Assembly (NCBI RefSeq): GCF_041886205.1
Contig: NZ_CP169029.1
DNA: 64,000 nt
Strand: one strand, 5' to 3'
Origin: Escherichia coli
GTDB taxonomy: Bacteria; Pseudomonadota; Gammaproteobacteria; Enterobacterales; Enterobacteriaceae
Part shown: positions 51,301 to 57,300 of the stretch, piece by piece
Layout of the letters: each line of letters opens with the position of its first letter
How positions within the stretch are numbered: position 1 is the first letter of the stretch
Position numbers: made by a program

Positions 51301-54300
51301 TGGCGTTAATGCCATTTTCAAGAGCAAGTTTTGAGATGGATATCCCGGGTTCACAGGAGGCAGCAACGAGCTGCTGTTTAAATTCGGGAGGATAATTAGG
51401 GCAGCCTTTTCGCCTGCCGGGAGTCACATTTTTCTGCATATCTGACACTTTGGTTCCCACTACTTATTTGGTGGACACCACTTTGTCTAATTCGTCAGAT
51501 TCTGACCAGACGGTTCAGGCTGTACGCTTACAGATATCGGGGTTCATGACCGGAGGGCTGTTAAAGTTGTGCAGTGTGCTGAGCGGGACTGTTGTCAGTA
51601 TTGTGCTGATGTTGTTTAATGGAAAAGTTATTTGATATGCTTATCCACTGATGATGACATTATTCCTGCGGGGGCGGGGATTTTTCAGAGTGTCATCACA
51701 TGAGCCATTGCGGTACTGTTGACTGTTTTGCGTCTGTTTTACGGGGATGGCTCAGCGACAGCGCTGTAATCCGGTGACGAAATAATATGGTTGTTCGCTA
51801 TAAAATTACTGCAACGATAATCAGGCCCGGAGGTCTGCCGGTGCAGTGGATACGTTATTCTGACCATAAAATGACAGTAACAGAATGCGAAAAGATGTTT
51901 TCCCCACCTAAAGAGCCAGGGCGTTCTTTTGGTGACAGGGCCAGAGTGAAAGATTTTTGTTGTAATGCCATAGCGGACAGAGAAGAACAGTGATAACTGT
52001 AAGGCAATTTAATACCTGTACTGTCTGAATCGTTCCCCCGCAAATCACACACGTTATTTACATGCAACGTGTTGTGATTTTCATTATTGCATTGTTTTGT
52101 GATATATTTCACAGCATCAACAAGACATTCAGGTATCAAATTATCCGGCATATTCACACCATATAACAACAGGCGGTGATAAACCGTCCTTCTCCGGCTG
52201 AAGTCATTGCCCGCATATATCGCGGGCTTTTTTATTCAGAACCGGTCAATTATTGTTAAAATAAGTCATATCATAAATCAGGTACAGCCATGATGATGAC
52301 TAAGGTGTCTGTCGTTATTATGAATATAACGGTTTTCCCGGAAGGCTTTTTACGGGCAATCCTTCCCTCTCCCACTCTGTACGGGGATTTTTGTGCACTG
52401 GCTCATATTTTTGTTTTGTCAGTATGCTCTAAAATCTTATGGCCCACAAACAAGTATAATTATTCTAATTCCACAGGTAGCATATTTAGCCCACATCCTG
52501 TGTGGGCTTCTGTTTTCCGTCAGTGAAAAACGGGATGTTTTACAATGAAAACAGTGGTACCTGCAGAATAAAATGTCGCCATATACTGAAACATAAAACA
52601 TTACTATCCCCTCTCCGTTGCTGACACTCTCCTTACGACTCCAGAAACATGATCTGCATCGCTGCCGGTACAGTTTTCCTGTGGCACATTTCATCTGTGC
52701 AGGCATATATCGCTATGACATAGTTGATTCAGCTTTGGGGGAGGTGATGGTTCCCCCATTTTTTTGTTATTCCCGTTTCGGACGTGCTTTATACGCCAGT
52801 ATGTTCACAGGGAACCATCGCATTAGCCTGCCCCCCGGATTGCAGAAACAGGCGGAGGAATGTCCGGTAAACTGGCCTGCGAAAGTCGTGCTGATGATGA
52901 CATTTTTGATGAGGTAACAAAGTGGTATTAACTGTTGAGGTAACATGTCAGGCAGAGTGTCTGGTCTAATAACCATCATTCACAATTTCCCTGCCATGTT
53001 GTTTTAACCACTGGCAGGGAGTCACTGAGTAGTATTTCCTGAAACTTAAAATAAAATACGACAGGCTGTTGTAACCACATGCCCTGGATACCACATATAT
53101 GTTACTGTTCCTGCATCTCATCAGATTTATTGCTTTTTTCATACGCACGTCTGTGATTATCCGGCTGAACCCTGTCCCTTCACTGTGTAGTTTCCTTTTA
53201 AGCTGACTGCTGCTTATGCATAACGCTGATGCAACATCTGACAGATACCATTTCTTTGCCGGCTCTGCGGCAACAATAACTTCAACACGTAACGAGTAGC
53301 TGTTCAGCCCACCGGACAATACAGGCAGCAACTGGTTTTTATCATTAAGATAATCCAGCAACACAAACAATACAGATTCATAAAGATGAGCATTCCCCTG
53401 TTGTTCCACGAGGGGCATCAGCGAGTTCAGGAAGGTACCATACACTTTCTTCCTGAAATAAGAATTTTTTCTGACGGCGATACGCAAAGCATCAGCATCC
53501 CTCAGTCTGATATACAGATAGTCACTGACGATATGACAGGGTATATCAATAAACCTTACTCCGCTCTCACACGCATCCATAAAGCATGAAATGTCATTTC
53601 TTTTTATGAGAAGGATTTCATTCTTATGAAAATCAACTTCCTCATTATGAAATGAAACACAGAGCGGCCTTAACGTGATGGCGAAGCAATACGGGAACAT
53701 ACACTACAGGTGTAATTTATGAATACATTATGTTATGTGTGGATGCCTTACATAACATACGATCCGGTTATATTTATTCTGATAATATGTGGCACACCTG
53801 TCATCTGTGATAATATTAATGTATTGTAAACCTCATACTAATGATGACCGGGAGCAGACTGTATCCTGGTTATCATCAGGGCACATAAATGCTGCCAGCA
53901 ACCTTCGGCAGGCTTACATTGTCTGTAATCACACTCTCCGGCCCCTTTTCAGGACAAGAGTGAATTCGCCACACATTTATCCAGAACCCTGCGAGTCACT
54001 CCCGCTGCCCGTGAGTGACTGTGAAATCCTCAGTCAGTTCAGTTTAAACCGTTATTAATTATTCACAGCTATCACTATATTTCGGTGGGCTTTTCATTTT
54101 TGTGAATAACTGTTTCTCCATTTTATCTTCGGATTTCACTAAATCATCAGCGAGCTTTATCTGTTTGTATATCACATTTCCGTCACACCGGAATAAACTC
54201 ATATAAACATACCGCGACAATTCGTAATCGCTGCCCCCTGTTATTCAGCCCTCCATCTTTCAGCATAACCTGTATGAGAATCATCTTTTGTGAGTGAAAA

Positions 54301-57300
54301 CCGGACTTGCCAGACGGCAACAACAATAAGGAACTCACCCATTATATTAAACGCTTCATGCCCCCTTCAGTCCGGAATCACGAGAAATACATCAGCCAAT
54401 AAAATTATACCTTTTTCTTATTGCATTAAATATATGGCCATATATTAAAATCCGGACAGTCTTCTCCGGAATATTACATATCTGATAATGTCAGTTTCTT
54501 ATACCTGATGGCTGGTCATATTCTGTATGTTATTTCAGTACACATCGACAAACAACAAACTGTTTGCCGCCCGATAAATCCGGATGATATAGTAAACTAA
54601 AGAAAATGGAAGAAATAAAAGTGCGAAAATGTTCACACTTTTATAATTAAGATACCAGAAATTATCATTCAGCTGTCAATTTCTTTGAAAAACGCCGGTA
54701 ATCACCAGTCTTTACTGACAGAACCGATATGTTCCGAATGCCGGTGTTCCCTCGAGCTTCAGCAACAGCTTTCCTGTATGGCTGTGGTTTTGGTTACGTA
54801 GCCATGATACCTGAAACCATGCGCTATTCATAGATTAATAACAACTGTAATAATAGCCGGATTTTGTGTCACAGTTACGGAAGACTGCCAGAAAATACTG
54901 AGTACAGACCGGAGGAATATAATTATTCAGAATATATTCTGCTGCAGAACATCCTGTTATATCAGATGTAAATATCTGCAGAATTATACCAATATATTAT
55001 ACAGAACAGAATAAATCACATAATTTTATCCGGAATTTGCCCCCCTTAATGACTGCATTTTACTGACACATTAATATACTGCCGTTTTATTTTACATTTT
55101 AAAAACCATGCCTCAGTATAATATATGAATTAAGTCTGTTTTATACAAAACAGCCAGAGACAAGTAATCACTTATCTCCGGCTGTACCACAAAATCAATA
55201 CTGGGAATTAATTACTACTTTTTCTCCGAATTTCCCATTAACAGGTAATGGGATGTAAGTTGAATTTAATGCTCTGAGAACTCTTATCCCTTCAGCATTT
55301 GCTTTTCTGGCATCAAGTATATCATTATCAGAGTCACCATAATATATGGATATATTATGTTTTTTTATATACTCAACTTTTGCATCTTTATGTGCCCCTC
55401 CTGCAAAAATAACCTTGTTTAACTTATTTGCAGGTATCTGAAAATCGTCCTGTATTGTAGCTGTTAAATCCTCCTTTCCATTAGAAGGTGCAGTTCTGCC
55501 GGTAATAAAATAAATATTATCACCTCTGCTAAGGTGTAATTTGATAAGTTCTTTGGCAGATTTTTTAGGAATAGAAAATCTGTCCCAGCCATTACTGGCC
55601 TCATCCCAGAATTGCTGATTATTTAAATAATCATCACTGTCTGGTGAATATTTTTGTTTTCCACGGAAAAATACAGGACTGGAAAACAGCACAGTATCAT
55701 CTATATCAAAGCCAACGCTTATCGGTTTCTTATTTTCCAGACTCCTGGCAATCTGCTCAACTGAAACCCAGTGAACAGGATACTGATAAGTCAGTTGTGC
55801 CAGTGTGGCTCCTTGTTGCTCAACTCCCCTGTCCGGAGAAGCGGCATTTACTGCAGATATCACGGATAAAAGACCTGTAGCAATCATTATGCAGATACTT
55901 TTCATTTTTCTATTCATAATGTTTATCCTTTGTAGTTATATAATATCAGTAAGCAATTAAGTCCTGTTTAATGCTGAGACCCTGTATAATATATTATAAA
56001 CATACGCATATATTAGTGATAAACATCACGGTCAGATGAAGAGAGAAACCATGGATACATTTATATATGTGACAAGTATCGCATATATTGAGCATTTTTT
56101 ACCTGACTGAACGTCTGAAGTACTTTGCGGAGCTGTAATCATTTTAAATGACAGACTTGTTTCATAACTATTTCATATGAAAGCAGTTATCGTACGAAAT
56201 GCATCCGTGTCTGACAAGAGTAAATTCCATCTTTTCCCGATGTCAGACACATCGTCTGATATTTTCTTGCTAACGCATACCATATCAACGAAGTAGCTGT
56301 GAGCCCCGGCATGTTTTCCCCATAACATCTTCCTGATATGCAGGAATCGGTTGTAGAACCTGATTACACTGCGGCCTCTCAGGATCACTAACAGAAATGA
56401 TATCAGGATATTAAGCGGCGCAATTATCACAGGATGCACATGGTCCGCTGTACATTAGAGAAAACTTTTATTCCTCACAAAGTATAATGGCTATGTATAC
56501 TCTTTGTTTAAGTTATCCTGCAGGATCCTGAATCAATACTTTATATACGTGTGATGAACTTCTTTAGAGCGCCATGTCAGTTTATCGTAACCGGCTCATT
56601 TAAACCGTCTGGTCTGTTTCCTCCGGCTCTACAAAAATAATGTCCATCATTTTTAATGGACACTATCGTATGAAACACCGGACCTGGATCACTGAAGCTT
56701 TACGTCTTCACTTTGAAGAACATTTACCCCGGGTTGTGGCCGGGCGTCGCCTGGGTGTACCAAAATCAACAGTTTGTAGTATGTTCGTGCGCTTTCGGAG
56801 AGCTGGCCTTTCGTGGCCTTTGCCCGCAGGCATGTCGGAGCAGGAACTTGATGCCTGCCTTTACGGACAATTTTCCACGGTACCAGTCGTACGTCCTGAA
56901 AGCACCGTTATATCCGAAGCCCCCGTGGTAAAAAAACGTCCCCGGCGGCCCAACTTCCCTTATGAGTTTAAAATCGCCTTAGTGGAGCAGTCACTGCAGC
57001 CCGGAGCCTGTGTGGCGCAGATCGCCCGGGAAAACGGAATCAACGATAACCTGCTCTTCAACTGGCGCCATCAATACCGGAAAGGTGGCCTGCTGCCTTC
57101 CGGAAAAAATATGCCGGCACTGCTTCCCGTGACGTTAACGCCGGAGCCGGATAATAAAATCCCGGCCCCCGCACAGGAACCAGAGCAGATAAATACACCG
57201 TCCGACAGTCTGTGTTGTGAGCTGGTTCTGCCGGCCGGAACTCTCAGGCTTAAAGGTAAACTGACGCCGGCGTTATTACAGACACTTATCCGCGAAATAA

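Follow-up and report, generated by a model that had tools for sequence, protein, structure and literature searches.

Positions 53701 to 55194 of a 64,000-nucleotide stretch of Escherichia coli DNA (contig NZ_CP169029.1 of RefSeq assembly GCF_041886205.1; referred to here in its full length as the window) form an AT-rich region between two genes. One encodes an aphA-like class B acid phosphatase of 240 amino acids (55195 to 55917), and the other encodes an AraC-family regulator of 244 amino acids (52966 to 53700). Both genes are on the minus strand, and the region is therefore located 3' of aphA and 5' of the AraC-family gene. The initial annotation placed it upstream of the acid phosphatase gene, which is true in coordinates only. 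From aphA toward the AraC-family gene, we distinguish the intrinsic terminator of aphA (55150 to 55185), approximately 790 bp of AT-rich DNA to which we could assign no origin (54360 to 55149, the orphan part), a decayed yfdX-family pseudogene (53895 to 54359), and the upstream region of the AraC-family gene (53701 to 53894). We consider it highly probable that these segments make up a composite and mostly nonfunctional spacer in a module of 5 kb that was acquired horizontally.

The G+C content of the region is 37.8%, compared with 50.3% for the core of the window (positions 1 to 37000, our reference for composition), which is an AT content of 62.2% versus 49.7%. The near absence of coding signal noted in the initial annotation is borne out, in that the longest open reading frame (ORF) has 89 amino acids (53789 to 54058, plus strand), which is within chance; dinucleotide shuffles give 77 ± 18 amino acids, and 21% of them reach 89. 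The six frames of the region have no Pfam match at an E value of ≤10, and Rfam 15 covariance models gave no match at an E value of ≤1 on either strand of positions 51000 to 58000. A search of 5.8 billion proteins with the three minus-strand frames also gave no match at an E value of ≤10 (the plus-strand frames were covered by Pfam and by tblastx against loci fetched from other assemblies, which are identified below by L numbers). Since this database-wide search missed even the yfdX remnant described next, it is insensitive.

A decayed yfdX-family gene next to the AraC-family gene

Comparison by blastn, tblastn, alignment, and synteny identifies positions 53895 to 54359 (minus strand) as the remnant of a heavily eroded yfdX-family gene. 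In blastn searches with the yfdX genes located upstream of AraC homologues, there are two collinear high-scoring segment pairs, at 53881 to 53968 (E value, 2e-8) and 54090 to 54168 (E value, 2e-9). With the YfdX protein of F17-associated loci as the tblastn query, the region matches with 37% identity over 67 amino acids across two stop codons (E value, 1e-7), and when the whole 64-kb window is searched, the remnant is the sole significant match (E value, 6e-6). The local DNA alignment with yfdX has a z score of 12.6 against dinucleotide shuffles, and the global alignment with intact yfdX has 70% identity over 449 columns. Among the YfdX queries, only the syntenic F17-type protein detects the remnant; K-12 YfdX has no tblastn match in the window. 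The remnant is 465 bp long, while the intact gene is 630 bp, and it has many frameshifts, in-frame stops, and a net deletion of approximately 165 bp. A functional gene should have approximately 210 codons with a signal peptide, and here the reading frame stops after codon 5 and is then broken by multiple frameshifts. The longest surviving fragment is a 53-amino-acid ORF at 54059 to 54220.

The same gene is found directly 5' of the AraC homologue and on the same strand in L002, L003, L025, L026, and L034 to L036, in several states of preservation. In L025 and L026, it is annotated as an intact gene whose 209-amino-acid product has a signal peptide; it is frameshifted in the signal peptide in L002 and L003 and broken by frameshifts into three fragments in L034 to L036. 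Intact yfdX is present at this position in E. coli islands related to the present one and in a plasmid. In L041 and L043, only a 22-amino-acid C-terminal stub is left, and in L037 and L040, where the position lies between the cnf and cdt toxin genes, yfdX is undetectable. These gradations show that one and the same gene has decayed repeatedly, in various islands and plasmids, and finding them at a single site across paralogous loci strengthens the yfdX identification. According to the initial annotation, an intact gene annotated here in related genomes would mean that the region is simply a decayed coding sequence. That is what we find for about a third of it (53895 to 54359, yfdX). The copies in L002 (8863 to 9500) and L003 are annotated as a 190-amino-acid "YfdX family protein." The ATG frame reads MKHIL-stop, and the annotation starts at an internal methionine because of the frameshift in the signal-peptide region. 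Judged from its sequence, this copy probably lacks export and may be nonfunctional.

The 9-bp inverted repeat pointed out in the initial annotation lies inside the pseudogene. It exists, with slightly different coordinates: the structure is TTATTCACA-N33-TGTGAATAA, with arms at 54059 to 54067 and 54101 to 54109, rather than 54060 to 54109 with an N32 spacer. Of the 11 inverted repeats detected, it ranks last in strength, and its predicted fold has a free energy of -9.9 kcal/mol with a 33-nucleotide loop. Of the shuffled sequences, 21% contain one or more perfect 9-nucleotide inverted repeats whose loop is ≤40 nucleotides. The repeat overlaps the end of the longest surviving yfdX ORF fragment, and its counterpart in intact yfdX is not self-complementary. 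It therefore arose during decay, does not represent a conserved site, and is a by-product of pseudogene drift.

The AraC-family gene and its upstream region

The AraC-family ORF has Pfam HTH_18 and HTH_AraC matches. In NCBIfam it comes closest to HilD, GadX, and YdeO, with scores well short of the equivalog cutoffs, and its PDB matches are GadX, Rns, CsvR, and ToxT, which places it by sequence similarity in the HilD/GadX/YdeO/Rns branch of AraC proteins. Several members of this branch counteract H-NS and often autoregulate. Homologues of the gene with 82 to 85% nucleotide identity are present in approximately 20 E. coli genomes, beside the F17 fimbrial operon, and on one plasmid.

The upstream region (53701 to 53894, minus strand) aligns with the yfdX-AraC spacers of L002, L025, and L026, and the start codon and first codons of the AraC-family gene are conserved in this alignment. 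The promoter of the gene must be located within these positions. Promoter-like site prediction suggests a sigma-70 promoter with a -35 element ATCACA at 53811 to 53806 and a -10 element TATTAT at 53787 to 53782, and the putative -10 element aligns with TATAAT in all three loci. The same alignment reveals an insertion of approximately 41 bp (at approximately 53733 to 53773) that is specific to the window. It carries a 10-bp perfect hairpin (53729 to 53738 and 53750 to 53759) with a folding energy of -13.2 kcal/mol and a z score of -2.85.

The AraC subfamily is small, with only 12 protein clusters at an E value of ≤1e-30, and appears to be restricted to E. coli. We inspected the loci of paralogues with 72 to 81% amino acid identity (L037 to L040, positions 5001 to 5735; L002; and L026). 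They lie between cnf-type and cdt toxin genes, next to F17 operons, and beside a RelB/ParE pair, which suggests that this is a virulence-plasmid-associated regulator.

aphA and its terminator

The aphA-like product has a Pfam Acid_phosphat_B match and matches the NCBIfam AphA equivalog over its full length with 287 bits, compared with a cutoff of 195.8. A strong, textbook rho-independent terminator begins 10 nucleotides past the stop codon (55150 to 55185, minus strand). It consists of a 16-bp stem, a 4-nucleotide loop, and the U-tract tail UUUUGUAUAAA. Its folding energy is -27.7 kcal/mol with a z score of -7.7, and none of 200 shuffled sequences folds as well. Since positions 53701 to 55194 are downstream of aphA, it is impossible for the aphA promoter to be located there. 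The most promoter-like sequence for aphA lies at 56022 to 55993 on the minus strand (TTATCA-18-TATAAT, 10 of 12 matches, a consensus match only), approximately 75 nucleotides upstream of the start codon and outside the region.

Other E. coli loci (L031, positions 5001 to 6562; also L032 and L033) have an aphA paralogue that is 67% identical, with a second Acid_phosphat_B gene (269 amino acids) 27 bp further on and a divergent porin gene ahead. A porin gene is also found near the window-type aphA in several assemblies (e.g., L005). Upstream of aphA in the window, an 88-amino-acid ORF (56173 to 56439, minus strand) has a weak match to IS200-like transposases (Pfam Y1_Tnp; E value, 0.003, which is below the cutoff) and could be left over from a transposase. 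The JML285 annotation lists a portion of this ORF as a hypothetical protein.

Distribution of the module

The first 6 kb of the window (mdfA, dacC, and deoR) has 95 to 100% identity to 5,424 of 5,426 complete E. coli genomes. Positions 53701 to 55194 were found in just 1 of the 5,426, JML285 (AP024114), and K-12 is without the locus. The AT-rich island that holds the region is bounded by IS66 copies. Based on this flanking by IS66 and the presence in a single complete genome, we conclude that the region is horizontally acquired DNA, which agrees with the initial annotation.

The RefSeq annotation of JML285 has no gene called within the spacer. In draft assemblies, the locus is less rare than among complete genomes: in an assembly collection, the exact aphA-like protein is indexed in 128 blocks, and the exact AraC-family protein is indexed in 316. 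In all 20 of the assemblies that we fetched, the aphA-spacer-AraC segment is 99.9 to 100% identical, and the spacer has no called gene. The three single nucleotide polymorphisms among these assemblies are all in the flanking genes. A 5,055-bp module (window positions 51532 to 56586) is also present in assemblies that are without the flanking IS66.

The sole difference between the JML285 copy of the region and that of the window is a segment of approximately 57 nucleotides (L004, positions 6798 to 6856, in AP024114) at the equivalent of window positions 55096 to 55120. It resembles an Illumina P7/Nextera adapter with errors (...aagacggcaaacaagat...gtcctgctcgtgggctcggagatgtgtataaaatacag), and this apparent indel is probably adapter contamination of the assembly and not biology. 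Elsewhere in the same island, window positions 38000 to 45800 contain genes for a response regulator, a MASE1 sensor kinase, a UhpC-like protein, and an ABC transporter (fbpC-type in the JML285 annotation), a set that resembles AfuABC-type sugar-phosphate uptake systems.

The orphan part

The G+C content of positions 54360 to 55194, which comprise the orphan part (54360 to 55149) and the terminator, is approximately 35.6%. The orphan part has no homologue in E. coli genomes other than JML285, in plasmids, or in phages, and none in the loci of the aphA and AraC paralogues. Among 100,044 species representatives, one 22-mer from a hairpin at 54615 to 54644 had no match, and nothing was found by aphA peptides either. 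The second acid phosphatase gene of L031 is of fitting size, and we considered whether the orphan part is a decayed copy of it; tblastn and blastn found nothing, and homology to that locus ends exactly where aphA does, with its stop codon. The F17 island has small genes 5' of yfdX, and a tblastn search for their remnants was also negative.

There are two minus-strand hairpins in the orphan part, at 54451 to 54470 (z score, -1.9) and 54615 to 54644 (z score, -6.9). The latter has a 13-bp A/U-rich stem followed by a U-rich tail. The strand pattern of the terminator-like hairpins (see below) would fit terminators left behind by minus-strand genes that have since been lost.

CCGG is present 15 times in positions 53701 to 55194, especially at 54360 to 55194, compared with 1.9 expected from dinucleotide content, and 33% of CpGs lie in CCGG. 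A second-order model predicts 11.1 occurrences, so the enrichment is largely explained at the trinucleotide level. It is also common to other AT-rich island DNA: window positions 47301 to 48135 have 10 CCGG sites, and approximately 21% of CpGs are in CCGG in L002, L025, and L026. We therefore rejected CCGG enrichment as a specific signal. The longer sequence TCCGGA is a different case, since other AT-rich DNA of the island and of F17-type islands is rich in CCGG and not in TCCGGA. Its excess in the orphan part and terminator could be a composition signature of the donor or could represent binding sites.

Assessment of alternative explanations

Our interpretation of positions 53701 to 55194 as a composite spacer would account for its segments as follows. 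Read on the minus strand, the order of the module is aphA, spacer, and AraC-family gene. Within the spacer, transcription of aphA would end at the rho-independent terminator; the approximately 790 bp of orphan AT-rich DNA, with its two further terminator-like hairpins, would probably be debris of lost genes; the eroded yfdX-family gene would be what is left of an ancestral yfdX-AraC pair; and the last segment would supply the AraC-family gene with its promoter and leader. Only the aphA terminator and the AraC promoter and leader are likely to be active today.

The initial annotation proposed instead that this AT-rich tract is a nucleation and silencing region for H-NS that contains a regulator-dependent promoter and that the neighboring AraC-family protein is the anti-silencer. 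We consider this unlikely. It draws on the 62% AT content in acquired DNA, on the grouping of the regulator with HilD, GadX, YdeO, and Rns, and on the promoter of the AraC-family gene itself, which must be within 53701 to 53894. The anti-silencer proposal agrees with the branch of AraC proteins to which the regulator belongs, but not with the location of its supposed target, since the orientation of the genes puts the aphA promoter outside the region. The AT content is not above that of the flanking genes (the G+C content is 36.8% for aphA, 37.4% for positions 55918 to 56620, and 41.6% for the AraC-family gene), and a decayed gene takes up a third of the tract. The high-affinity H-NS motif tCG(t/a)T(a/t)AATT, reportedly described by Lang and colleagues in 2007, is not enriched. 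We found seven sites with ≤2 mismatches to TCGWTWAATT, compared with 8.9 ± 2.8 in shuffled sequences, and no site with ≤1 mismatch. Promoter-like sites are also at chance level (12 versus 12.4 expected). With regard to DNA curvature, tracts of A5 or T5 and longer are rarer here (2.7 per kb) than in the flanks (5 to 10 per kb), while AA/TT periodicity at 9.5 to 11.5 bp is slightly above that of shuffled sequences, 4% of which reach the observed value. Generic coating of AT-rich islands by H-NS, together with autoregulation of the AraC-family gene, is plausible by analogy, but such coating would not single out positions 53701 to 55194, and nothing in the sequence does so.

Several observations weigh against a mostly nonfunctional composite spacer. 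The yfdX identification rests on synteny-guided pairwise comparison with homologues, since the remnant is too eroded to reach significance at the family or database level. It is below significance in Pfam (six frames, E value of ≤10) and in the database-wide protein search, and a hidden Markov model built from 82 YfdX proteins matches it weakly (E value, 0.02; 2.6 bits), in the correct frame and at the correct profile positions. The missing match to a curated model is expected for so badly eroded a remnant. The 20 copies are essentially identical, so that variation among them speaks neither for neutral evolution nor for constraint. No origin was found for more than half of the region, the orphan part. 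Finally, there are nonrandom features that debris does not predict. The terminator-like hairpins in window positions 53400 to 56200 are all on the minus strand (6 versus 1.0 ± 1.0 expected), the hairpin at 54615 to 54644 (z score, -6.9) leads into a U-rich run, and TCCGGA is present five times in the 835 bp from 54360 to 55194, compared with 0.16 expected and approximately 0.27 per kb in the core.

These last features are what an unannotated functional element in the orphan part would have in its favor, whether a minus-strand noncoding RNA that ends at 54615 to 54644 or 54451 to 54470 or a protein-binding array of TCCGGA sites. Such an element has no Rfam match and no homologue in the collections searched, and thus there is no evidence of conservation or covariation for it. 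Much of its signal is compositional, given that CCGG enrichment is common to other AT-rich island DNA, and the hairpins could just as well be terminators that outlived their genes. We therefore regard a functional element of this kind as very improbable. The most specific version, in which the orphan 790 bp is a lineage-specific minus-strand noncoding RNA or a TCCGGA cluster that controls the AraC-family regulator, with the hairpins as regulated terminators, seems slightly more remote still. The strong excess of CCGG, and above all of TCCGGA, and the exclusively minus-strand terminator-like hairpins leave a small chance of function to the orphan part.

The composite spacer, then, corrects the interpretation of a gene-poor interval of an E. 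coli island. This matters little in itself and involves no new mechanism. The yfdX pseudogene was previously unannotated, and the yfdX-AraC pair has lost yfdX repeatedly across islands and plasmids. These results may help annotation and work on the small, E. coli-restricted AraC subfamily found near the F17, cnf, and cdt virulence loci.

Comparison with known systems

The structure at 55150 to 55185 shares with rho-independent terminators in general the G+C-containing stem, the loop, and the U-tract right after a stop codon, and there is nothing unusual about it. Promoters in AT-rich islands that are silenced by H-NS can be relieved by AraC-type regulators such as HilD, Rns/CfaD, and GadX. The present locus is like these systems in that AT-rich acquired DNA adjoins a regulator of the same AraC branch. 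It differs from them in that no H-NS motif or A-tract signal was found in the region and the promoter of the supposed target, aphA, is elsewhere.

With respect to the EvgA-YdeO acid resistance network of K-12, the regulator in the window matches YdeO over nearly its full length, but with 88 bits, compared with an equivalog cutoff of 348 bits. In K-12, in contrast to the arrangement described here, yfdX and ydeO are at separate loci. K-12 YfdX (b2375) is 51% identical to F17-type YfdX. The remnant opens with MKRLI-stop, which corresponds to the first five residues of K-12 YfdX, although this is a weak point of the comparison.

Another close counterpart is the yfdX-AraC pair of F17-associated E. 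coli islands and plasmids (e.g., the chromosomes of FDAARGOS_1058 and AHB6 and the mip270_22 plasmid). In the window, yfdX is destroyed, with 465 of 630 bp left and with frameshifts and stops; the leader has the 41-bp insertion with its hairpin; and the module is joined to an aphA-like gene and not to an F17 operon. In both settings, the same AraC-family gene is present (82 to 85% nucleotide identity), with yfdX immediately 5' of it on the same strand, an alignable spacer between them, and a conserved start codon.

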